Positions 4,178-24,621 of a stretch of 25,501 bases of DNA are shown here, piece by piece. The translations under genes and the position numbers were made by a program. Origin of the DNA: Verrucomicrobiota bacterium. Its GTDB lineage: Bacteria > Verrucomicrobiota > Verrucomicrobiia > Limisphaerales > CANJSG01. Below the pieces are notes generated by a model that had not been told where the DNA came from, made no database searches, and was given only the letters and a program-made list of their open reading frames with translations. The stretch spans positions 1 through 25,501 of the forward strand of contig JBBQXJ010000070.1 of NCBI GenBank assembly GCA_038209745.1, read 5' to 3'. How positions within the stretch are numbered: the stretch's first letter is position 1; every line of letters starts with the position of its first letter.

Positions 4178-4888
4178 TCAACTGATCAGCAACAAGCGCG
4201 CGGGCTGGCCGGGAATCGATGCCGGTGCGCGGTGGATGCACGGGGGAACGGGACTGCCGGGATATTCCACGGCGATACGCCAGAGATGGCCGAGGCCGAA
4301 GGAAAACGGCTGCGCCCGCGGGTTCGGAGCGTAGTGGAGGTCGTAGCAGTTTTCGTTCAGGTATTCGAGGAAGTCGGCGTCGTCTTTCCCTCCGAAACAC
4401 CGGAGCAGTTCGGCGCGGGTTTCGGGGATGTCCACCCGCCGTTGCGCCTCGTCGTTGCGCAGCCCTTCGCTGGTGGGCCCGGTGTAGGTGCAAAGGTAGG
4501 TATCGGTGTCGGTCGTGGCGCTGTCCGCGTGGAACGAATAGACGTCCGTGCGCACGGCTCCCGGGTCATCGTCGCGCGGATAGTCCTGGATACAGTCGAG
4601 AATCGGGGCGAGCCCGTGGTCCCGGAGGAGTCGCTGGTCTGCCAGGAGGATTTCGATGGCGGCCAGACCCGCGACGCTCAGCGGGAGGCTGCGAAGTTGC
4701 GCCTCGTCGAGGTGGGCGATCCCGTCGACGGCACCGAGGCGTTCCACGACCTCGCCGAAGTCGCCCGCAAGGGTGCGCTGCCAGCAGAACGCGTTGACGC
4801 CGTCCCCAAACGGGGTCGTCACCAGTTCATGGAAGCTGCCCACCATCCGGATGCGGCTGTAGCTGGGAAGCGGGATCAAAGGAGTCAT
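4178..4888 (-). CDS. DUF1826-like protein (putative Fe(II)/2OG-type oxygenase fold)
   Basis: Motifs SFHAD...LCTYTGPTSE...IHRAP...RLLLIS (HxD...H triad) resemble DUF1826. Natural amino-acid composition, 236 aa. Confidence 0.7.
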   Translation of the reverse strand: MTPLIPLPSYSRIRMVGSFHELVTTPFGDGVNAFCWQRTLAGDFGEVVERLGAVDGIAHLDEAQLRSLPLSVAGLAAIEILLADQRLLRDHGLAPILDCIQDYPRDDDPGAVRTDVYSFHADSATTDTDTYLCTYTGPTSEGLRNDEAQRRVDIPETRAELLRCFGGKDDADFLEYLNENCYDLHYAPNPRAQPFSFGLGHLWRIAVEYPGSPVPPCIHRAPASIPGQPARLLLIS

Positions 4889-5116
4889 TTACGATTCAAG
4901 AACCGGCACGACATCGCACGAAAACGAGTTCGGCGCCGAGGTTGCCGGGGAAGAAAATGGCGAATCGGCCGGGCGGGGGGCAATCGTGAACTCCGGGTTT
5001 CCTCGGTTGCGGGTCGATTTGCGATGGATCTGATTTCTTGTCCGGGAAAGGGCTGGAGTGGTGAGGAATATCGCGTCTCCGTCCATTGCTGGCTTGCACT
5101 TCCGCCGGCCGACCTT

Positions 5117-7600
5117 ATGCAGCTCCGGTCGTATCCGGTGGACGCTCAAACCAAATCATCTCCGTTCGTGGCCGCTCTGGGCGTCGGCGCCTTCACCCAG
5201 GGTGTCTTGTCGGCTCTCAAAGCCGACGGCGCACGCGTGGCCACCTACCTGACCCGGGACTACGCGCACCACGGGCCGGGACTCGTCGGTCCGGTCTTCG
5301 ATTCGGCCCTGGAACCGAACCCGTGCCCGATCTTCCGCACGGACCGGCCGGATCTGGTCCTCCCCATGTCGATCGAGTGGCGGCGGAGTCCTTGGGCGGA
5401 CGAGTTTCTCACGCTCGGCATCCCGTTTCTCTGTCCGACAGGCGCGGGCCTGGATCTGGAGCTGGACCGGGACTTTGCCCGCCGGCTTTGTGAACGGTTC
5501 GGGGTGGCGTTTCCGACCGCCTTCGTGGCCCGGGACCAGGCCGAGGCCGAGGCGCTGGTGCGGCAACATGGGAAACCGTTTGTCCTGAAGAACCCGCGCT
5601 GTGGTCCGTCCACTCCGATCCACACGATCGTCTGCGAAACGGTCGAGGACACGCTGGGCTGGCTGCCACGGCTGGACTACGCGGACGGCGTCTTTTTGCA
5701 GGAATACCTCGGACGCGCCGAGGCCGGGCACATCGCGCTGGTCAGCGCGGGCGAGATCCATTCGCTGGTCACGAACCAGGAATACAAACGGGCTTTCGAT
5801 GGCGACATGGGGGTGGTGGCGGGTGCGCCGATGGGCGGCTTGATCGAGCGGGATCCGGAGGATCGCCATGGGCTGTGCCGCGACCTGCTCCGGCCGCTGC
5901 TGCCTTGGTTTCGCGAGGTGGACTTCCATGGTCCGGTGCAGGTGACGGCGATCCGCCATGGGGGCCGGTGGCACGTGCTGGAATACAATGTGCGACTCGG
6001 CATCACTTCCGGACCGATGATCTGCCGGATGCTGGCGAATCCGTTGGAGACTTTGATGGCCTGTGCGCGGAACGAAGCGTTGTCGCCGCAATGGCGCGAA
6101 GGTCGGCGCTTCGGTTGTTCGGTGACGCTGGCGGGCTACGGCTATCCCTTCACGAAGATGGAGGGGCCGCGAGTGCCAGTCGTTCGTAGGCCGGCCATCC
6201 TCGTCCGGCCAGAAACTGCGAAGAACTTGCCGGATAAGGATACGGAAGTTCTCTGGAACGAAGTCGCCCTGTCGGAAGCGGGCGAGCTCGAGGCGACGGG
6301 TCATCGGCTCTGCGACGTGGCGTCATTGGCTCCGACGCTGTCGGCGGCGATTGCCTTAACCTATGCCGAGATCGGCCAATGGCGCAGCCTCGGCAGCTAC
6401 TTTCGGCGCGACGTCGGGCAGTCGCTCTGGCCGCCGGGTGTGGGCGCGGCGGGTCCCCGGGTGGAAACGGTGCCGGTGCGGGCCGCCTGGATCGAGATCG
6501 ACCACGCCCAGTTGCAGCGGAACTTCGAAGCGATTGTTGAGCGGGCCCGGGAAGCGAATCCGGACCAGCCTGCCCAGATCCTCTTCGTCGTGAAGGATGA
6601 CGGGTTCGGCCACGGCGCGGTCCAGACTTCGCACACGGCGTTGGCCTCGGGCGCCTCGCGATTGGCGGTCGCGACGGTGGGCGAGGCTTTGGAGTTGAGG
6701 CAGGGCGGCATCGACGCGCCGATCCTGGTCTATGGCGAACGTTCGCCGGATGAACTGGTCGAGTGCCTGAAGCACGGTCTGACCGTCTGCGTGAACGATC
6801 TGGCGACGCCGAACCTCCTCGGAAAACTCGCCATGGAACTGGGAATGAAAGCCCGCGTTCACCTGAAGATGAGCACCGGTATGAACCGGCACGGAGTCGA
6901 TTGGGAATCGGTGGCGGAGATCGGAGCCGCAGTCGGGCGGATTCCCGGGATCGAGATCGAGGGCGTGTTCAGCCACTTCGTCATGGCGGACGCGGCGGAT
7001 CATACGGTGTCGCTGGAGCAGGTGGAGCGGTTCCGCCAGGCGGTCGGCCGATTGAAGAACGCGGGGGTGCGGCCCGTGCTGCGGCATCTCTGCAACTCGG
7101 GCGGTTTCCTTAATTTTCCCCAGGCACACTTCGACATGGTCCGGCTGGGGATCCTGCCGCTGGGTTGGTATCCGTCGGACGATCTGCCCGAGGTGCATGG
7201 ATTGGCCCCGATCATGTCGGTCAAGGCGCGCGTCGCCTTGGTGCGGGAGATAGCGGCCGGCCAGACCGTCGGCTACGGCCGTCGTTATCGGGCCGAAAAA
7301 ACGCGGCGGATCGCAGTGCTGCCGATCGGCTTCGGCGACGGATATCCGCGCCTTTTGAACACGGGCTGTGTCCTCCTGCATGGCCGGCGCGTGCCGATTC
7401 GCGGCGGAGTGACGATGGACGCCATCATGGTCGACGTGACCGACCTGCCCGAAGTCGTGGCGGGCGACGAAGCCGTGTTGATGGGCGGCCAGGGCGGTGA
7501 ACAGATCTCGGTCCACGAGCTGGCCGGCGCCGCCAACACGGTGTCCTATGACATTCTCGTTCGTTGGAGCAGCCGGATGGAGCGGATTCATTTGCGATGA
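5117..7600 (+). CDS. alr: Fusion protein: divergent PurD(GARS)-like ATP-grasp ligase (about 5117-6420) plus alanine-racemase-family PLP enzyme (about 6478-7600)
   Basis: N-terminal part: PFVLK, FLQEYLG, QEYKRAFDGDMG, VLEYNVRLG, AGYGYP and YFRRDVG, collinear with PurD. C-terminal part: AWIEID..L.RN, VVKDDGFGHG (PLP Lys at 6593), HLKMSTGMNR, GVFSHF, HLCNSG, VGYGRRY, VTMD, TVSYDIL. No stop lies between the two parts. The start is ATG 5117 or GTG 5138; the track's extension to 4151 is antisense to the DUF1826 gene. The symbol applies to the C-terminal domain only. Confidence 0.85.
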   Translation: MQLRSYPVDAQTKSSPFVAALGVGAFTQGVLSALKADGARVATYLTRDYAHHGPGLVGPVFDSALEPNPCPIFRTDRPDLVLPMSIEWRRSPWADEFLTLGIPFLCPTGAGLDLELDRDFARRLCERFGVAFPTAFVARDQAEAEALVRQHGKPFVLKNPRCGPSTPIHTIVCETVEDTLGWLPRLDYADGVFLQEYLGRAEAGHIALVSAGEIHSLVTNQEYKRAFDGDMGVVAGAPMGGLIERDPEDRHGLCRDLLRPLLPWFREVDFHGPVQVTAIRHGGRWHVLEYNVRLGITSGPMICRMLANPLETLMACARNEALSPQWREGRRFGCSVTLAGYGYPFTKMEGPRVPVVRRPAILVRPETAKNLPDKDTEVLWNEVALSEAGELEATGHRLCDVASLAPTLSAAIALTYAEIGQWRSLGSYFRRDVGQSLWPPGVGAAGPRVETVPVRAAWIEIDHAQLQRNFEAIVERAREANPDQPAQILFVVKDDGFGHGAVQTSHTALASGASRLAVATVGEALELRQGGIDAPILVYGERSPDELVECLKHGLTVCVNDLATPNLLGKLAMELGMKARVHLKMSTGMNRHGVDWESVAEIGAAVGRIPGIEIEGVFSHFVMADAADHTVSLEQVERFRQAVGRLKNAGVRPVLRHLCNSGGFLNFPQAHFDMVRLGILPLGWYPSDDLPEVHGLAPIMSVKARVALVREIAAGQTVGYGRRYRAEKTRRIAVLPIGFGDGYPRLLNTGCVLLHGRRVPIRGGVTMDAIMVDVTDLPEVVAGDEAVLMGGQGGEQISVHELAGAANTVSYDILVRWSSRMERIHLR

Positions 7601-8397
7601 AACTTCTCTTTTCCGAATGGAAATCGGACTACGCCACCTACACCTATCCCTACGTGGTCTGGGGCATGCCGGAGGCCGGTGAAACGGCGCCGGACTTCTT
7701 CGAACGCGGCCTGTTGCCGGCGGCGCCGGACCTCAGCCGCTACTACGTCTGCCGGAATGTGCGGGTGGACTTGGCGAAGTTCCAGCCGTCGTCGGAGAAC
7801 CGCCGCATCCTGCGCAAAGGTCAGGGGATCGCCTGCGAATTGGTTCCTCGATCCGCCTACGAGTATTCGGAGACCAAGCGTGCGGCATGGAAGGCCTATG
7901 CGGACCAGCGCTTCGGCGAGGACATCATGTCCTTCGCCCGGCTGGACCGGTTGATGTCGTCGCCCGTGATCTCGCACCTTCTGGTCTTCCGCGAAGAGGC
8001 CACCGGGGCGGAGATCGGCACGGTGCTGATGTATGTCGATGGACCGCGCGTGGCCTACTACTACTATGCGTTCTTCGAGCTGGGCGGACTCTCGAAGAAT
8101 CTCGGCATGTTCATGATGACGGCAGCGGTGGAACGATTCGCCACGGAAGGCTTCGCCGCGATCTATCTGGGCACCTGCTACTCGGAACGCGCCCTCTACA
8201 AGACCCAGTTTCCGGGCGTGGAATTTTTCAACGGCGCCTGTTGGTCGTCGAACCTGGACGAACTGAAATACATGGTGCGTCGCGAACTAAACCCGGTGGA
8301 CAAACACGCCTTCGAAACGCCGGAGTTCCTCGGCCTGTTCTGGAACGGTTCACTGGAAGGGCTGGCGGAACGATCGGGCTTCAAGATCGGGAGTTGA
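7597..8397 (+). CDS. ATE1/Bpt-like aminoacyl-tRNA-dependent transferase (GNAT fold), divergent
   Basis: CRNVRVDLAKFQPSSENRRILRK resembles the end of ATE_N. YYYYAFF...NLGMFMM...IYLGTCY...LYKTQF..VEFF resembles ATE_C (LG.../YLG.../YK..F). ATG 7597 overlaps the upstream stop (ATGA). Confidence 0.7.
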   Translation: MKLLFSEWKSDYATYTYPYVVWGMPEAGETAPDFFERGLLPAAPDLSRYYVCRNVRVDLAKFQPSSENRRILRKGQGIACELVPRSAYEYSETKRAAWKAYADQRFGEDIMSFARLDRLMSSPVISHLLVFREEATGAEIGTVLMYVDGPRVAYYYYAFFELGGLSKNLGMFMMTAAVERFATEGFAAIYLGTCYSERALYKTQFPGVEFFNGACWSSNLDELKYMVRRELNPVDKHAFETPEFLGLFWNGSLEGLAERSGFKIGS

Positions 8398-8537
8398 GCG
8401 GCTGGCGTTAGGGGGCCCATTTTGGTGCGGGGCGGGGCTGTTTTCCGATTCCATAGAACAGGCGGTTCTGACCAAGATGGGGCATTCCTGAACATCCCGG
8501 CGTGCGTCAACGTCCTACCTCACCAACCCCCAACTCT

Positions 8538-9914
8538 ATGGCATCAAAGAATCAACCCACCTTTCGCTACCAAGTTTCGCGCCGTCGCTTCCTCTACAGT
8601 TCCGCGCTCGGTGCCGCTGGCGCGATCCTGTTGCCCGGGTGCGCAACGACGCCCAACCCGCGTTTCAAGTCGCCGAACGAGAAGCTGAACATCGGCGTCA
8701 TCGGTGCCGGCGGCAAAGGCTCGTCCGACACCGACAGCTGCGCGAGCGAGAACATCGTCGCGCTCTGTGACGTGGATTCGGACACCCTCGACGAACGTGG
8801 CAAAAAGTATCCCGGCGCCCGGAAGTTCACCGACTTCCGCGTCATGCTGGAGCAGATGAAGAACCTGGATGCGGTGATCGTCGCCACGCCGGACCATATG
8901 CACGCGCCGGCCGCTGCAACGGCGATGAGGCTCGGCCTCCATGCCTATGTGCAGAAACCGCTCACACACGATGTGTTCGAGGCGCGAACCCTGCGCGAAT
9001 TGGCCCGCAAATACGGCGTGGCCACGCAGATGGGCAATCAGGGCAGCGCCGAGGACGGATTGCGCCGCGCGGTCGAGGTTGTTCAGTCGGGGGCGATCGG
9101 CGGCGTCCACGAGGTCCATGTCTGGACCAACCGGCCCATCTGGCCCCAGGGCATCGCGCGGCCGACCCGGGTGGATCCCGTGCCTTCGACGCTCAACTGG
9201 GACGGATGGATCGGCTCGGCGCCGATGCGGCCTTTCTGCAAGGACACCTATCACACGTTCAAATGGCGTGGCTGGGTCGACTTCGGCACCGGCGCTTTGG
9301 GCGACATGGCGTGCCACACGGCCAACATGCCGTTCCGCGCGCTGAAGCTTGGCTTCCCCATCAGCATCGAGGCGTCTTCCACTGGAATGAACGGGGAGAC
9401 TTGGCCGTCCAGTTCGCGGATCCGGTTCGAGTTTCCCGCGCGCGAAGGCATGCCTCCGGTCACGCTCTTCTGGTATGACGGCGGCGCGAAACCGTCCGCC
9501 GACACCACTTCCGAGATCATGTCCATGATGAACAAGGGCGGCGGCAAGAAGGAGCTGCCCACCAGCGGCTGTCTTTTGGTCGGCGACAAGGGCCAGCTGT
9601 TCTCGCCCGACGACTACGGTGCGAAGTTCTTCCTGCTGCCGGAAAAGAACTTCGAAGGCTACCAGGGCCCCGCCATCACCATTCCTCGTTCGCCCGGTCA
9701 TTACGTCGAGTGGATCAACGCCTGCAAGGGCGGCCCCGCGCCCTACTCGAACTTCGAGATCGCGGCCTACCTGACCGAGATCATCCTGCTCGGCTGTGTG
9801 GCGCTGCGAGCCGGCAAGAAGATCGAGTGGGACGGACCCAACCTCCGGGCGACGAACGCGCCGGAAGTCACGGAATACGTCCGTCGCAAGTATCGCGCCG
9901 GCTACAGCCTGTAG
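8538..9914 (+). CDS. Gfo/Idh/MocA-family oxidoreductase, Tat-exported, probable lipoprotein
   Basis: SRRRFL twin-arginine motif, LLPGC lipobox, IGVIGAGGKG Rossmann motif, VATPDHMH, YVQKP, QMGNQG, and WRGWVDFGTGALGDMACH. Confidence 0.9.
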   Translation: MASKNQPTFRYQVSRRRFLYSSALGAAGAILLPGCATTPNPRFKSPNEKLNIGVIGAGGKGSSDTDSCASENIVALCDVDSDTLDERGKKYPGARKFTDFRVMLEQMKNLDAVIVATPDHMHAPAAATAMRLGLHAYVQKPLTHDVFEARTLRELARKYGVATQMGNQGSAEDGLRRAVEVVQSGAIGGVHEVHVWTNRPIWPQGIARPTRVDPVPSTLNWDGWIGSAPMRPFCKDTYHTFKWRGWVDFGTGALGDMACHTANMPFRALKLGFPISIEASSTGMNGETWPSSSRIRFEFPAREGMPPVTLFWYDGGAKPSADTTSEIMSMMNKGGGKKELPTSGCLLVGDKGQLFSPDDYGAKFFLLPEKNFEGYQGPAITIPRSPGHYVEWINACKGGPAPYSNFEIAAYLTEIILLGCVALRAGKKIEWDGPNLRATNAPEVTEYVRRKYRAGYSL

Positions 9915-18662: not shown

Positions 18663-21600
18663 CTACTGGTTCACCCGCACCCGGAACACCTCGCTGCCGG
18701 AGCCTTTGACGGTCCGGACTTCGTTGGTGCCGGGAGCGGGCGCGGCGGGGAGCTTGATCAAGCTGTTCCAGGCGCCCGTGGTGATGGATCCGCGCTGCTG
18801 CACCTCGTAGGCGACGCCGCCGGCGGCCGGCCAACGGAGCACGACGTCCGATCCCATGATCGACAATTGCACGCGGAGCACGCTGGCCGCATCCGCCGGA
18901 CTGGTGCCCGCGATGAATTCCTGGGCGTTGCTCGCTCCGTCGAGGTCCTTGTCCAGCGCAGCATCGGTCGGATCCTTCGGGTCGAGGCCGTAGAGTGTTT
19001 CCCAGGCGTCGGGCAGTCCGTCGTGATCGGAATCCGGACTGGTTGCGGAGAAGACTCCGGGTGATGGAGCCGCCGCGATCCAGGCGGTCGGATCGGTGCC
19101 GGGCAACGATGGTGCGGCGAGTTGCAGCGAGAGCCCGGAGCCATCGGCGTTGGTCGGCCAAGGTGCCTGGTCGAAGAACACGGTTTCATCGACCATGACC
19201 CAGCCGACCGGGTCGCCGGGCAGGTCTGGAGATTGGGGTTTCTCCAGTGTGATCTGGCCGGAGCGGTTCGACAGTTTTCCGGACCACGGACCGAGGATCG
19301 GCAAGGAAAGATTGGTGATGCCGAATGCGGAGCGGAAGGCGGTTAGCTGCGCGGAGTCGGTCGGAGCGAAACCGACCACGAGGACCTGGCCGTTCGCGGG
19401 CAGGTTGAATCCCGCCGGGAAGTCGAACTTCACGTCGCCGTCGATCCGCCAGACGCCGGCCTCGTTCGAGAAGTTCGTTCCGTAGGCGGCGGCTCCGGTG
19501 ATCTCGATGAATTCGTCGCGGGTGTTGTCGTTGGTCGAACCGGGAGCCGGTGCGGGATGGAAGTGGACTTCTGTCAGTCGTGGCGCGTCGGGCCGGTTTG
19601 CATTGGCGGCGTCGCGGGTGCGCGGCGTGAGCGGGGCCCAGACTTCCGGGGAGTTGTGGGGCCGTCCCCAGGACCCGCCGTTCTCCTGCGCGGGGAACCG
19701 GACGGCGTCCACGACATGGTCCGACCCGTCGCCGGGCAAATGGGAGAGGAAGACCTGTTCGCCCGCCTTGTTCAGACCGAAGCCGGTGTTCGTCGGGTTG
19801 TGGAAGCCCGTCACTTCGTCGAACGAGATGTAACTGTTGGCCCGGACCCAGGTTTCGGGCGGGATCATCCACTTCTTCAAATTGTTGGCGTCGTCGCTCA
19901 GATACCAACCCGAGCGGAGGATCACTCCGGTCGGGAACGGGGTGTGCAGCTCGATCCAGTCGTTGGAGTCCTGCTCCTGCGTGTAGTCCGTGTGCGCTAC
20001 GATCTCGTTGAGCACGATGAAGTCGGTCGGTTCCGGATCCGCGGCGCCGGGCGAGCCGTTGATGCGGGCGCTGGCGCGCCAGTTGAAGGGGTAGTCGAGC
20101 GAGCCGTTGGGTTCGTTGGTCATCGCCCGGGATACCGGGACCAGCGAATGCCCGGTGCCATCCGCCGCGATGGGCCACAGGCGGCTGTCTCCATAGGTGA
20201 ACGAGACGAGTTCCGGGCCGGCTGCGGCCGACTTCAGGGTCACGGTTTCTCCGCTGTCGCTCAGGCTGCCGCTGTAGGGGCCGAAGACCGGCACTTCGGG
20301 ACCGATTCCGTAGTGGGAACGAAAGGCGGCGAAGCCCCCGGCTGGATCCGCCTGGACCACGAGCGCGTAGGCTCCGGGCGCGAGCGTTGCGTCGGGAGGG
20401 AAGGTAAACGAGATCCCGGCGGTGAAGCTGGCTCCCCCGAGATCCAGCGTGGTGTCGGCGGCGGCATTGTGCAGCTCGACGAACTCATAGGCCGAGCCGG
20501 CGGGCGGATTATACATCAGTTCGGTGATCCGCAGGCTGTCGGCGAGAGCGGCGGCGTTGTCGGGTGCCCCGGCGATGAACTGGACGGGGGCGGACCAATG
20601 GCTGGCCCGGCCGGTGGAATCCGTGAAGCGCACGCGGGCCCGGTAGGTGTGGCCGACCTGCAACACCCCGGCGGGGATCGCGCCGTCCGCGACGTAGGTC
20701 GCGAGTTCGCCGCTTTCCCAAACGGGTTCGATCTCATACTTCCAGGGCTCCGCCGCGAGGTAGGAGGGCGCGTTGGTGGAGGAGACCTCGCCGACGCGCC
20801 ATTTCATCGTGGCGAAGGGGTTGGCTCCGAGAAAAGCCGAGGCGCGGAAGGTGAGCCGGTTCACGGGAAATCCGTTCGATCCGGTGTGGGCGATGACGGG
20901 TTGCTGGGGGATCGCGGCGTCGGCCGCGATCGAGTCCAGACTCCGCGGATTCGCGGCGGAATTGGTGGCACGGAAGAGCAGGTAGGTCTTCATGCGGTCC
21001 ACCGCGCCGTTGAAGCTTCCGCCGACCTTGTAGTAACGGCCGGTGCCGGCCTTGCCCACGGAGGACGAGTAGGTGGAGCTGCTCATCTTGGGGTTGTAGT
21101 CCCACTGCGAACGGTCGGCGTCGAGCAGGGTCGGGCCGTCGGCCGGGCCGCGCAGGAGCGAGGCCTGTTCATCGATCAACCGCCAGCCCTCGTCCCCGTT
21201 CATCAGAAGGTCGCGCATCTCGCGGATCCGGTTCTGCCATTCGCGCCAGACGGCGGGTTGGGTGGCCGGACCGGCGAGCAACCGCTGTTTGATGGCGTCC
21301 ACCCCGCCGCAATTGGCGTCATACATGTTCTCGGCCCAGGTGAGGTCGAGATCCCAGGGGACCACCTGCCAGATCCCGTTGGTCGGATTGCGGTAGTAGA
21401 AATAGTTTTTCCCGTAGCAGACGTCGTAGTGGTGGATGCCCTGGACGACGGTCTGATAGCTGAGGTAGGCGGGGAGGTTGAGGTTCGTCCGCCACCAGGC
21501 CTCGGTGGCGCCGGTGTAGTGCCCGAGGAAGGCGTTGAGGTCGGATTTGTCGGACGGTCCGCCGGGTCCGAGGTTGTTCGGGTCTCCCGTGCCGTTCTCC

Positions 21601-23687
21601 ATCTTGTAGAAGTTGCCGTCGGGCAGCCCATGCTCGTCCAGCAACTGGCCGTCCTCCTGTTCGAGCGCGAGGTAGAGGCCCCAGAAGTCGCCGGAATACT
21701 GGTCGGGCGGGGCCTGGTCGGGTTCGTCCACGATCCGGAACTGGATGTAGGCGGTGTTGGGAGCGGGCACGCCGGCGAGGTTGAACATCCGGAGGCCGAC
21801 CGATTCGAACATGCCCTGTTCGCCGCGGTGTTGAAAGTCGCCCTGCTGGATACAGGCGCCGAGGTTCAGCTTCTTCCACGGAGCGCCGTATTTGCGACCC
21901 CAGCTGTCTCGTGGCTGGAATTCGTGGCCCCGGTTCAGGTCGAACTTCCACATGTTCTTCACCATCGCATAGCGCCAGACGCCGCCGCGGGCTCGGTAAT
22001 GGACGTGGTCATAGACCCTCCCGTCGTAGACCAATGTGCCGGCCGAAAGATAGGCATCTCCCCCATAGCGGCTGAACCACGTGGAAGCCTCCACCACGTA
22101 CTTCTTGGAGATCAATTGATACACGGGCAGCCGGTTCATCTCGTTGGAGGACACCGTGAACTCCGTGCCGAGCGGGCCGGCGGAGGCGGGATTCACCGCG
22201 CCGCTCCAAGCCGGGACGCCGTCGTAGACGTAGTAGGCGAAGTTCGGCTGCGGATCGTCGGTGTAGGGCACGCGGATTTTCTGACCGGTGGTATCCGCCA
22301 CGGTGATGCGGTAGCGGATCAACCGGCGATGCTCCTGCACTGCGGCCGGAATCGTGGCCGTGAAGACGTCGTCTCCGGCCACCGCGTCGCCGTCTTTGCC
22401 GGTGTCGTCCATGGCGACGGTCGTCCAGTTCGTGAAGTAGGCAGGGTCGGTCAGTTCGATGTAGTTGCCGGGCTCGACCACCTGGTATTCCAGCGACACG
22501 GAGGCGACGCCGTCGGGATCCGTCACCTTGGCCGAGACGTGGACGGCTTCACCGCTGCGCGGCTGGTTCGGGTTGTGGGAGACCTGACGCGTCTGGGGCG
22601 GGGCCGAGTGGGAGAAGACCGCGTTCTTCCGGCCGGGAGTCGGGCCGTCGGCACGGGCGGCCGAAGACGCGTGGAGGCGCAGATCGAGGAAGCAATCCGA
22701 ACTGCCGGACAGGAGGGTGTTGAGCAATTGGATGGCGATGACGTTCGTCCCGGCGACCAAGTAGCCCGAGGGATCGGGCAGGGAATTGGTTTCCCAGGCG
22801 TTGCTCTCGCGGGTGGTCGCGGAGGTGCCGTTGTAGGGCAGGTCGCCGGGCGAAGCGTTCGCATTTAGCACGTTCACGCCGTTGATCCAGACCTTGAAAC
22901 CGTCGTCGTAACGGGCGTCGAGGACGAGGCCGGCGGCGTTGTCGAGGTTCGTGACCACGAACGTCGTCCGCAGATAGACGGTCGAATAGTTGCCGGCCAT
23001 GTCGTCCAGCGGCGTGTTGATCGCGAGCACTGGATCATAGCCGATCGGCATCGTGCCGCTGGGCCAGGCCGCGGCGTCGAACGTCCCCAGCCTCCACGCG
23101 TCGGAAGGCGACGACGGTTCGTCGATGCCCTTGATGTAGCTCCAGCTGACGCCCGCCGGGATCGGATCCGTCGCGGTCACCGGCAGCGTCTGTCCTTGGG
23201 ACGCCCGCCAACTGCCACCGAGTCCGTTGTCCAGGGTGGGATGGATCAGCTCGATGGAATAGCCCGGGGCGTCGCCGACAGTCGGCCAGGGAAAGCCCGC
23301 CGCGTAGTCCACTTCGTCGACCTTGTCGCCCGCCGCGTTTCGCAGGACGACGTCGTCGCCCTCGTTGGCGAGCCGACCCGCCCAGGGACCGAGGGCGACC
23401 GCGCCGAACTTGGCTTGGAGTGCGGCCGGATCCTCCGCCACCACGACAAAGCCCCCGGCGGGAATCGACGCGCCGGCCGGAAACGTGAACTCCACCGCCG
23501 TGGTCAACCGCCAGCCCGCGAGATTCACCGTGCCGGGGCCGGTGTTGTGCAGCTCGATGAATTCGACGGGCTCCGTCTTCACGTCCGGGTTGGAGTGGAT
23601 CTCGTTGATCACGATTTCGGCGAGGGAAGAGCGGGGGGCGAAGGCACAGAGCGCCGTGCACAAAATAAGGCGACGGAGTAACATCAT
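18663..23687 (-). CDS. Large secreted lamin-tail-domain / CotH kinase family protein (1674 aa)
   Basis: Signal peptide from ATG 23687 (or 23684). Four LTD-like starts: IVINEIHSNP..EFIELHN, LRITELMYNP..EFVELHN, IVLNEIVAH..DWIELH, RLTEVHFHP..EFIEI. Jelly-roll module (YLRTTF..YDDGFKVWING), CotH core (RARGG, WKFDLN, GLYLALEQ, HHYD..KNYFYY..PWDLDLTW), DSDHDGLPDAWE Ca-binding motif, and a C-terminal ...EVFRVRVNQ. Confidence 0.85.
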   Translation of the reverse strand: MMLLRRLILCTALCAFAPRSSLAEIVINEIHSNPDVKTEPVEFIELHNTGPGTVNLAGWRLTTAVEFTFPAGASIPAGGFVVVAEDPAALQAKFGAVALGPWAGRLANEGDDVVLRNAAGDKVDEVDYAAGFPWPTVGDAPGYSIELIHPTLDNGLGGSWRASQGQTLPVTATDPIPAGVSWSYIKGIDEPSSPSDAWRLGTFDAAAWPSGTMPIGYDPVLAINTPLDDMAGNYSTVYLRTTFVVTNLDNAAGLVLDARYDDGFKVWINGVNVLNANASPGDLPYNGTSATTRESNAWETNSLPDPSGYLVAGTNVIAIQLLNTLLSGSSDCFLDLRLHASSAARADGPTPGRKNAVFSHSAPPQTRQVSHNPNQPRSGEAVHVSAKVTDPDGVASVSLEYQVVEPGNYIELTDPAYFTNWTTVAMDDTGKDGDAVAGDDVFTATIPAAVQEHRRLIRYRITVADTTGQKIRVPYTDDPQPNFAYYVYDGVPAWSGAVNPASAGPLGTEFTVSSNEMNRLPVYQLISKKYVVEASTWFSRYGGDAYLSAGTLVYDGRVYDHVHYRARGGVWRYAMVKNMWKFDLNRGHEFQPRDSWGRKYGAPWKKLNLGACIQQGDFQHRGEQGMFESVGLRMFNLAGVPAPNTAYIQFRIVDEPDQAPPDQYSGDFWGLYLALEQEDGQLLDEHGLPDGNFYKMENGTGDPNNLGPGGPSDKSDLNAFLGHYTGATEAWWRTNLNLPAYLSYQTVVQGIHHYDVCYGKNYFYYRNPTNGIWQVVPWDLDLTWAENMYDANCGGVDAIKQRLLAGPATQPAVWREWQNRIREMRDLLMNGDEGWRLIDEQASLLRGPADGPTLLDADRSQWDYNPKMSSSTYSSSVGKAGTGRYYKVGGSFNGAVDRMKTYLLFRATNSAANPRSLDSIAADAAIPQQPVIAHTGSNGFPVNRLTFRASAFLGANPFATMKWRVGEVSSTNAPSYLAAEPWKYEIEPVWESGELATYVADGAIPAGVLQVGHTYRARVRFTDSTGRASHWSAPVQFIAGAPDNAAALADSLRITELMYNPPAGSAYEFVELHNAAADTTLDLGGASFTAGISFTFPPDATLAPGAYALVVQADPAGGFAAFRSHYGIGPEVPVFGPYSGSLSDSGETVTLKSAAAGPELVSFTYGDSRLWPIAADGTGHSLVPVSRAMTNEPNGSLDYPFNWRASARINGSPGAADPEPTDFIVLNEIVAHTDYTQEQDSNDWIELHTPFPTGVILRSGWYLSDDANNLKKWMIPPETWVRANSYISFDEVTGFHNPTNTGFGLNKAGEQVFLSHLPGDGSDHVVDAVRFPAQENGGSWGRPHNSPEVWAPLTPRTRDAANANRPDAPRLTEVHFHPAPAPGSTNDNTRDEFIEITGAAAYGTNFSNEAGVWRIDGDVKFDFPAGFNLPANGQVLVVGFAPTDSAQLTAFRSAFGITNLSLPILGPWSGKLSNRSGQITLEKPQSPDLPGDPVGWVMVDETVFFDQAPWPTNADGSGLSLQLAAPSLPGTDPTAWIAAAPSPGVFSATSPDSDHDGLPDAWETLYGLDPKDPTDAALDKDLDGASNAQEFIAGTSPADAASVLRVQLSIMGSDVVLRWPAAGGVAYEVQQRGSITTGAWNSLIKLPAAPAPGTNEVRTVKGSGSEVFRVRVNQ

Positions 23688-23928
23688 GATTCGTGGGAAA
23701 GCTTCGGGGAACATATCGGCCGCAGCGAACGAGTGACAAGGGGACGATTGGCGCGGGCGCGAGAATCGCCTTCCCCAAGCGAAGGGTTGCTGGCAGCCAC
23801 TGGGCCGCAAGCCAGTGAGCCACCTTTCGACCCATCTCTTCCTCTCGTGGTCACGTTCTTTCGATTTCGTGGGGACTTCCAGACAGACTCTGACATCGGA
23901 CACGGCATGTCGGAGCCGGCCCCGGGTC

Positions 23929-24035
23929 GCGAGGCGTCTTGGACTGCGCCGGTGCTCCGGCGCTTTTACACGCGCTCCGTCCCCGGCACATCCTCCCCAA
24001 AGCGGCGCGGCAGTACCTCGCTCCAAAAGCTTCGC
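23929..24035. repeat. Intergenic REP-like inverted doublet (REPIN-like)
   Basis: Left arm GCGAGGCGTCTTGGACTGCGCCGGTGCTCCGGCGCTTT contains the internal hairpin GCGCCGG-TGCT-CCGGCGC. The reverse complement of the right arm is GCGAAGCTTTTGGAGCGAGGTACTGCCGCGCCGCTTT. Both start GCGA.GC..TTGGA and end CGCTTT. Confidence 0.65.
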
Positions 24036-24063
24036 CATGGTTTGGCCCTCTCTCCACCCGCCC

Positions 24064-24621
24064 ATGACCGACACCCTCGCTCCATCCCAAGGCCTTCCCT
24101 CCCGATTCACGGAGAACGACCGCCACCGTATTGGCGAGGCACTGCGGCGGCAGGGCTCCATCCTCGGTTACGAACCCGCTTCCACCGATCTCTACCACTG
24201 GAGCCACCAGAACCGCGACTGGCTCGATCTTGGCAGGCTCCACGGCGCGTTCCGGCTGTCCCAGACCGATCTCGACCGCGCCGAATCGGTCGAGACCACA
24301 GCCCATCGCTGCCTCACGGTGGAAAACGAAGCCAGCTTCCACGAACTGGTCAAGCTGCGATCCGGAGCGCTGCTCCTCCAGACCCGCTTTCCAGGATCCG
24401 CCACGCTGGCTTTGCTCAAGCAGCTGCCCGAGGCCCTGGAATTCCACCACTTCGGCGACAGCGACGAAGCGGGCTCCGAGATCCTGCGCGATCTCCGGGA
24501 ACGATCTGGAAGAAATTTCCAGCCGCTGCACATGGAGCGGGGACGGTTGGCTGCGGAACAGGAGGCGCTGGGCGCGCCGCGCGACGAATGGCCTTTCTAT
24601 CCGGCCACAGGATCTTGGTGA
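24064..24621 (+). pseudogene. Short Toprim-domain ORF resembling the DUF2220/Wadjet JetD C-terminus; probable deletion remnant
   Basis: CLTVENEASFHEL...FHHFGDSDEAGSEILRDLRE gives the Toprim E and DxD motifs of the DUF2220/DUF2399 type. Only 185 aa, with no N-terminal CAP/DUF3322 domain and no neighbouring jetABC genes. Confidence 0.65.

Follow-up and report, generated by a model that had tools for sequence, protein, structure and literature searches.

The ATP-grasp D-Asp ligase that decorates Lys-3 in L. lactis and E. faecium is encoded in one operon with a racemase (racD-aslA; Racfm-Aslfm), and the L-residues or glycine of peptidoglycan side chains are delivered from aminoacyl-tRNA by GNAT-fold Fem/BppA enzymes (PMC4155827, PMC2922099). 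The same three enzyme classes, a racemase, an ATP-grasp ligase and a tRNA-dependent transferase, are found here in a single operon at positions 5117 to 8397 of a 25,501-nucleotide stretch of DNA (the window) from a Verrucomicrobiota bacterium (GenBank assembly GCA_038209745.1, contig JBBQXJ010000070.1). By analogy with these systems, we give about an even chance to the idea that the trio is a module for building a side chain, that is, a branch or cross-bridge residue, on peptidoglycan precursors. It is the best explanation we have because the precedent uses the same enzyme classes, because the trio is tied to the only alr of its genome, and because the transferase family is tied to murE and mraY. 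The strongest clue for peptidoglycan is that all 27 of the distant transferase homologues we collected lie in mur/dcw clusters. The differences from the known systems are also clear. Here the racemase is a pyridoxal phosphate (PLP)-dependent Alr and not of the Asp/Glu type, the ligase is derived from PurD, the transferase is ATE/Bpt-like instead of FemAB, the host is a Gram-negative-type Verrucomicrobium, and the target and substrates are ones that we infer.

The trio is encoded by two genes on the forward strand. The first, at 5117-7600 (+), is a single open frame of 827 codons with a stop-free translation to 827 aa. It holds a PurD-like ATP-grasp ligase domain (5117..6439; residues 1-441, ending in the family-specific SLWPPG), a Gly/Ala/Pro-rich linker of 13 residues (VGAAGPRVETVPV; 6440..6478) in place of the stop codon and spacer of unfused relatives, and an alanine racemase domain (6479..7600; stop TGA at 7598-7600). 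The second gene (7597..8397, +) encodes a 266-aa homologue of ATE/Bpt-like GNAT-fold aminoacyl-tRNA transferases, and its ATG at 7597 overlaps the upstream stop in an ATGA. The original prediction, made from the letters of the window, had described just this arrangement, a complete PurD-like fold joined through a linker to an Alr-family racemase and followed by an overlapping ATE1/Bpt-like gene, and it holds: domain scores, a profile search of PDB and a fold model agree on the first gene, and a weak Bpt match and an ATE1 fold describe the second. The proposed chemistry of racemase, carboxylate-amine ligase and aminoacyl-tRNA transferase likewise fits the predicted folds. The window was also said to be free of pur, mur and ddl genes, and none of the 16 other long ORFs (open reading frames) scanned in it is one.

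The context of the transferase family can be read from 80 metagenome contigs retrieved through a profile of the transferase, which comprise 53 loci of Verrucomicrobial type (at least 46% identity) and 27 distant ones. The latter are 29-40% identical to the window protein, with a G+C of 0.27-0.55. In every one of these 27 loci, as judged from Pfam and NCBIfam scans, a gene for a Mur ligase, MraY or a penicillin-binding protein (PBP) is present on the same fragment, and the ATE-like gene typically comes directly after murE or mraY. One arrangement (L105-L114 and L129) reads MraZ-RsmH-PBP-MurE-(ATE-like)-MurC-like-MurB-MurA-MurF-like, where the MurE of L112 scores 409 bits against a cut-off of 257. 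Another (L100-L103) reads MurA-x-sigma factor-MurE-(ATE-like), and a third MraY-(ATE-like)-MurC-like-PLP-dependent (PALP) enzyme; in L104, L124 and L128 an ATP-grasp_3 gene is close by. A tentative wider suggestion, to which we would give a little less than an even chance, is that ATE/Bpt-like proteins form an unrecognised tRNA-dependent peptidoglycan-branching family distinct from Fem, located between murE and a murC-like gene in low-GC bacteria and paired with a PurD-derived D-alanine ligase in Verrucomicrobia. As a separate observation, two low-GC loci (L104:6001-12002 and L128:2672-9259) hold a second, non-homologous set consisting of a transferase, a PLP enzyme (threonine-synthase/dehydratase-like) and an ATP-grasp ligase.

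NCBIfam holds no specific model for either the ligase family or the transferase family. Against its Bpt models the transferase matches weakly (best E 2e-12, 46.8 bits against a cut-off of 267), well short of equivalog level, and Pfam ATE_N and ATE_C find nothing in it at E <=0.1, the sole weak match being Acetyltransf_6 (E 0.053). More distant members of the family do pass the Pfam ATE_C cut-off, for example clusters P0237, P0247 and P0145 with 37.6, 35.6 and 33.3 bits. Sequence searches of PDB, both with the single protein and with a profile, gave no match, and the link to ATE1 and FemX comes from fold comparison only. In that comparison, the predicted model, with a predicted local distance difference test score (pLDDT) of 89, is closest to human ATE1 (8tzv, E 8.3e-9, query-normalised TM-score (TMq) 0.58), and yeast ATE1 entries reach a TMq of 0.48-0.56. 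Below ATE1 in the ranking come aminoacyl-phosphatidylglycerol synthases (A-PGS/MprF), FemX (ranks 3-10, TMq ~0.41), L/F-transferase and Sba18, so that all top matches are aminoacyl-tRNA-dependent transferases. The protein thus shares with ATE1/Bpt its best structural match and its only curated sequence matches, but differs in falling far below the cut-offs, in lacking ATE_N, and in a context of alr or mur/dcw genes instead of a proteolysis-linked one. This context argues for an acceptor other than a protein N-terminus. FemAB (PF02388) matches neither the transferase nor any other protein of the source genome. The N-terminus MKL(L/V)FSE is kept in relatives, and an exhaustive profile search with the transferase recovered 582 representative clusters, 136 of them at E <=1e-30. 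One cluster, P0204 (809 aa), has an ATE-like domain fused to a PPDK_N ATP-grasp-type domain and a PEP-utilizers mobile domain; a metagenome scan for relatives of P0204 found none.

The racemase is the most familiar part of the trio. Residues 455-826 of the fused protein match Ala_racemase_N with 197 bits and Ala_racemase_C with 141.5 bits (Pfam PF01168 and PF00842; cut-offs 24.1 and 25) and score 318.3 bits on TIGR00492 alr (cut-off 168), while the VanT-G serine racemase model, at 295 bits, stays below its cut-off of 460. The sequence contains VVKDDGFGHG (residues 491-500) and VGYG (718-721), which we take to be the motifs of the PLP-binding Lys and the second-base Tyr. The fused copy is the only alr match over the cut-off in the source genome, which is 92% complete. 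Each of five relatives also has exactly one, next to the ligase in four of the five. Since it lies far over the equivalog cut-off and is the sole alr in the genome and in all five relatives, the racemase is the housekeeping alr and no dedicated paralogue; as far as its sequence tells, it is an ordinary, unspecialised cell-wall alanine racemase. Canonical purD (503.7 bits, contig C11) and canonical ddl (264 bits, contig C20) are found elsewhere in the genome, and a ligase that replaces Ddl or PurD was rejected on account of these copies. That the fused gene is the sole alr of a genome with a ddl is indirect evidence for alanine as the racemase substrate. The original prediction held that all three domains had diverged from their housekeeping relatives; this is true of the ligase and transferase, both far below their cut-offs, and not of the racemase. 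It had also proposed a check for separate canonical purD and alr genes in the genome and named their absence, with these the only purD and alr, as a point that would count against it. A separate purD is there, a second alr was not found, and so the fused gene is the sole alr but not the sole purD.

For the PurD-like domain (residues ~1-441), Pfam GARS_A gives 31.1 bits (cut-off 27) and GARS_C 24.3 bits, below its cut-off of 34.8. On TIGR00877 purD the score is 76.7 bits, or 78.1 in the genome scan, against a cut-off of 288, and so the PurD equivalog level is not reached. A profile search of PDB with the ligase family returned PurD enzymes only (best 2ip4, E 2e-31), and the first 13 PDB matches of an AlphaFold model of the ligase (pLDDT 85.5) are all PurD as well, with a TMq of 0.68-0.76 over ~440 columns. 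The model has the four-domain N-B-A-C PurD fold, ahead of any other ATP-grasp enzyme. The active site was mapped through a HMMER alignment to Aquifex PurD 2yw2, with the active-site residues named in PMC8880213 as reference. Residues for ATP and acyl phosphate are kept (Aquifex/ligase: Glu100/E115, Lys143/K158, Glu192/E202, Lys214/K224, Arg287/R293), Lys103 is replaced by R118, and of the residues named there as holding glycine, Asp212 has become E222 and Glu292 falls within a one-residue deletion. Across the ligase family and canonical PurDs alike, E115, K158, E202, K224, E289, N291 and R293 are invariant; E289 and N291 are presumably the Mg site.

The motifs that set PurD apart are, by comparison, lost. 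In all aligned members of the ligase family GGREH has become GVG[AS]F[AT]H and SQDHK has become NQEYK, the B-loop GLAAGK is replaced by NPxC[SG]PxSP with two invariant cysteines, and GDPE by G[IV]T[ST]G, with one residue fewer; the canonical PurDs aligned alongside retain GGREH, GLAAGK, SQDHK and GDPE. According to PMC2978367, GLAAGK is the conserved B-loop, and Arg13/Glu14 and Asp295 are proposed to position phosphoribosylamine (PRA) and to act as base. On our placement, human R13/E14 would fall on GGREH and D295 on GDPE. With its ATP-grasp residues kept and the substrate motifs of PurD gone, the domain looks catalytically competent as an ATP-grasp ligase with substrates that differ from those of PurD. 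It has in common with PurD the four-domain fold and the residues for nucleotide and acyl phosphate, and probably shares its acyl-phosphate chemistry on a small amino acid; it differs in its score, in the replaced motifs, in the C-terminal SLWPPG, and in being a paralogue beside a canonical purD. Relatives of the ligase occur in 398 species genomes, mostly labelled Verrucomicrobiota, and every stand-alone one (~455 aa, 42-61% identity) has SLWPPGxx as its C-terminus. In the source annotations these stand-alone proteins appear as phosphoribosylamine-glycine ligase, and two of the fused clusters as alanine racemase.

Synteny on the ligase side was counted in the best 80 of the 398 loci with a ligase relative. 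An alr gene follows on the same strand in 67/80, as a separate gene in 63 and fused in four, so that racemase and ATP-grasp ligase are adjacent and co-oriented in the manner of racD-aslA; it lies <=600 bp from the ligase stop in 66 of the 67 and 1.5 kb away in L092. In the other 13 loci the ligase has no adjacent alr (11 with room for one, two without). The transferase comes directly behind alr in 36/80 loci, with a gap of -4 to +235 bp, and lies 2.3 kb off on the other strand in two; it is missing from 25 loci despite >1 kb of downstream sequence, and four have no room for it. All-against-all clustering of the ORFs of the 80 loci revealed no further conserved neighbour. From the transferase side, alr is directly upstream in 25 of the 34 Verrucomicrobial-type loci with >1.3 kb of upstream sequence. 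Where an alr-transferase pair has at least a further 1.5 kb before it (18 loci), the ligase is directly before alr in eight, farther upstream in three and not in range in seven. The alr-transferase pair is thus the tightest link in the trio. The ligase may also sit elsewhere; in genome G440, for instance, it is 13.6 kb away. Counted from both sides, ligase, racemase and transferase are conserved as a unit, whether fused or split, as the original prediction had anticipated.

Co-occurrence can also be followed genome by genome. A search of 151 genomes of the window's order with ligase and transferase found the ligase in 52, the transferase in 54 and both in 49, with the ligase alone in three, the transferase alone in five and neither in 94; these genomes are related and many are incomplete metagenome-assembled genomes, so the counts are descriptive. 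All five further genomes in which the ligase lies away from alr hold a transferase orthologue (E ~1e-121 to 1e-124), behind alr in one of them. Of 300 genomes sampled from other families in the phylum, one, the single-contig genome G242, gave a ligase match, there as ligase-alr-transferase. Three other genomes of the window's genus all have the transferase, and one of the three has the ligase. Two genomes, G400 (contig C23, L093; from the window's own genus and 92% complete) and G325 (contig C40, L096), carry the ATE-like gene alone, without alr or ligase in the fetched sequence and with no ligase found genome-wide.

In the mechanism that we propose, the Alr domain would supply D-alanine, and the PurD-derived domain would turn the carboxylate of a small amino acid, most likely D-Ala, into an acyl phosphate, in analogy to the glycyl phosphate that PurD forms from glycine. 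The acceptor could be an amino group left free in the stem peptide, for instance in the side chain of the position-3 diamino acid, or a residue added by the transferase. In a Fem-like manner, the ATE/Bpt-like enzyme would use an aminoacyl-tRNA to load an L-amino acid or glycine onto the same precursor, also at a free amine. What we infer here covers the peptidoglycan target, D-Ala as the acid, the residue carried by the tRNA, the accepting atom and the sequence of the steps, and direct channelling of the D-amino acid to the ligase, which the original prediction had included, would be a further step of this kind. In other phyla, ornithine in peptidoglycan accompanies bridged cross-links. Peptidoglycan of Opitutaceae contains ornithine besides diaminopimelic acid (DAP) (PMC5303756), which fits a side-chain module. 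In the dcw region of the source genome, on the contig shared with ddl (G000:C20:48954-51234; L180, L181), MurE candidates match the murE model piecewise, the best with 103 bits against the cut-off of 257; MurE of this genome may be divergent, and the position-3 residue hence another one.

Several findings weigh against a role in peptidoglycan. Queries for mur genes matched none of the 53 Verrucomicrobia-type metagenome loci, and the scanned ORFs of the 25.5-kb window include no mur gene; because none lies beside the Verrucomicrobial trio, the peptidoglycan link is carried by alr and by the distant homologues of one gene. Because alr is an essential gene, proximity to it could in part be operon hitch-hiking, and seven of the 18 alr-transferase loci with enough upstream sequence have no ligase nearby. 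Of 110 high-quality genomes from the order, 39 contain the module, a patchy distribution which marks it as accessory and dispensable. The only solved relatives of the ligase act on a small sugar-phosphate amine and not on a nucleotide-peptide, and four loci of another lineage have a ketohexokinase-like kinase before the ligase instead of alr, which suits a sugar-amine acceptor. In these loci (L063:4674-5792, L065:4704-5822, L076:4089-5231 and L085:4148-5284), the PfkB kinase (PF25270) is directly upstream of the ligase on the same strand, and may tie the ligase of that lineage to sugar phosphates; an unannotated ORF of ~425 aa follows the ligase in L063 and L065. The missing mur genes, the sugar-amine relatives, the kinase loci and the dispensability together make a serious rival of a soluble product, cytoplasmic or secreted: the PurD-like enzyme would couple a sugar-amine with D-Ala or some other small acid, giving a D-Ala pseudopeptide or an aminoacylated amino-sugar phosphate that the transferase then extends. 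Enzymes of the tRNA-dependent GNAT fold do act in antibiotic pathways, with Sba18/Sbb17 among the fold matches of our transferase. We nevertheless consider a soluble product unlikely, given that no conserved transporter, tailoring or regulatory gene accompanies the trio in the 80 loci, that the racemase is the cell's only alr and not a dedicated paralogue, that the PurD motifs for handling phosphoribosylamine are gone, and that the distant transferase homologues are, without exception, in mur/dcw clusters. Of the products listed in the original prediction, then, a non-canonical peptidoglycan modification is favoured by this last count, and a peptide made independently of nonribosomal peptide synthetases or an aminoacylated amino-sugar ranks lower.

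Other readings keep the trio near D-Ala or take it apart. The ligase could serve D-Ala handling other than branching, either by making a D-Ala-X dipeptide for MurF or in recycling and salvage, with the transferase editing the same pool. Its linkage to the sole alr, the D-Ala-D-X dipeptides made by ATP-grasp enzymes (PMC2922099) and the existence of a MurF-Alr fusion family in NCBIfam (NF008897) speak for this, but with a canonical ddl present, a ligase that is PurD-like and not Ddl-like, and a tRNA-dependent transferase left without a clear role, we regard it as improbable. A shade less probable again is that the transferase aminoacylates protein N-termini in the manner of an N-degron enzyme, with a ligase that modifies proteins or is unrelated and a gene order that reflects co-regulation. 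Arginyl- and leucyl-tRNA-protein transferases are indeed its nearest curated families and its best structural match, and no other ATE_C-type gene was found in the source genome. Even so, 47 bits against 267 leaves it far under all Bpt equivalog cut-offs, Pfam ATE_N and ATE_C both fail to match the window protein at E <=0.1, and neither its close association with the ligase (49 genomes share the two, eight have one) nor the mur/dcw context would be expected of such an enzyme. The least likely rival, and a very improbable one, is that the ATP-grasp domain is a second glycinamide ribonucleotide (GAR) synthetase or purine isozyme whose adjacency to alr is incidental. The full four-domain PurD fold, PDB sequence matches to PurD only and the source annotation of stand-alone relatives would all agree with this. 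The loss of GGREH, GLAAGK and GDPE and the canonical purD elsewhere (504 bits, against 77-78 here and a cut-off of 288) decide against it, as do the alr linkage in 67/80 loci and the co-occurrence with the transferase.

Searches confined to open-access papers and bioRxiv found no account of the trio or of an ATE-like gene in mur clusters. The logic of the system is known, and the enzyme families in it are new. A related fusion is the MurF-alanine racemase family NF008897, in which Alr also lies C-terminal to an ATP-dependent ligase, there one of cell-wall precursor synthesis. The Alr part of our fused ORF scores 258 bits on that model against a family cut-off of 804, and its partner is an ATP-grasp PurD-like enzyme and not a Mur ligase. 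Should the trio indeed build peptidoglycan side chains, a PurD paralogue and a relative of N-degron ATE1/Bpt would have been recruited to peptidoglycan decoration in poorly studied lineages, and close bacterial kin of the eukaryotic N-degron arginyltransferase would act on the cell wall. They would form a third sequence family, after FemAB and the aminoacyl-phosphatidylglycerol synthases, in tRNA-dependent envelope chemistry. Branched or D-Ala-bearing muropeptides would be predicted for roughly one genome in three within a large Verrucomicrobial order, and equally for uncultivated low-GC bacteria with the transferase in the dcw cluster. Such a D/L side chain would be a peptidoglycan chemotype undescribed for these Gram-negative-type lineages, and the genes would offer a handle on cell-wall chemotypes that cannot be read from canonical mur genes. 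The annotations phosphoribosylamine-glycine ligase and alanine racemase would, for these proteins, need correcting.

The fusion of ligase and racemase is not the essence of the system, which mostly consists of separate neighbouring genes. Its junction, SLWPPG-VGAAGPRVETVPV-RAAWIEID, spans 6422-6502. In stand-alone ligase relatives SLWPPGxx is followed by a stop, and the spacer to alr in unfused relatives is 8-570 nt, most commonly 20-41 nt. Both domain sets are found together in 12 independent protein clusters (806-858 aa, 73-99% identity), and in-frame read-through with a similar linker is seen at four genome loci (L013-L016; ligase part 71-81% identical), so that the fusion is real and no assembly error. 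It is limited to the closest relatives, namely four of the 80 loci, with a ligase part at least 71% identical, and is a recent event in one clade; there, it would represent a late merger of two genes that were already co-transcribed. The true start of the fused ORF is uncertain, because the frame remains open farther upstream, where another ATG, at 5024, would make the protein 858 aa long, the length of a database cluster (P0003) 99% identical to it. In genome G444, an open frame of 854 aa had suggested that fusion occurred independently a second time, but the ligase there has its own stop codon and alr is encoded separately. P0148, in which the first ~250 residues of the ligase run straight into the C-terminal ~130 of the transferase, probably reflects a deletion or assembly artefact and was not used as evidence.

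The surroundings of the trio vary. Consensus scans of 4700-8700 gave no promoter and no terminator, and an Rfam scan of the window no riboswitch or other RNA. Directly downstream, at 8502-9914 (+), is a GFO/IDH/MocA oxidoreductase gene that is 80% identical in the nearest relative (L013) and absent from the other loci; it therefore lies outside the module. On the other side, a 236-aa ORF at 4178-4888 (-), divergent from the trio, has a weak DUF1826 match and is beside the trio in none of the 80 related loci. Farther away, a long ORF at 19557-22868 (+) with a weak Endonuclease_5 match is probably spurious, being antisense to a 1832-aa ORF at 18663-24161 (-) that contains two Lamin Tail Domains and a CotH kinase domain.

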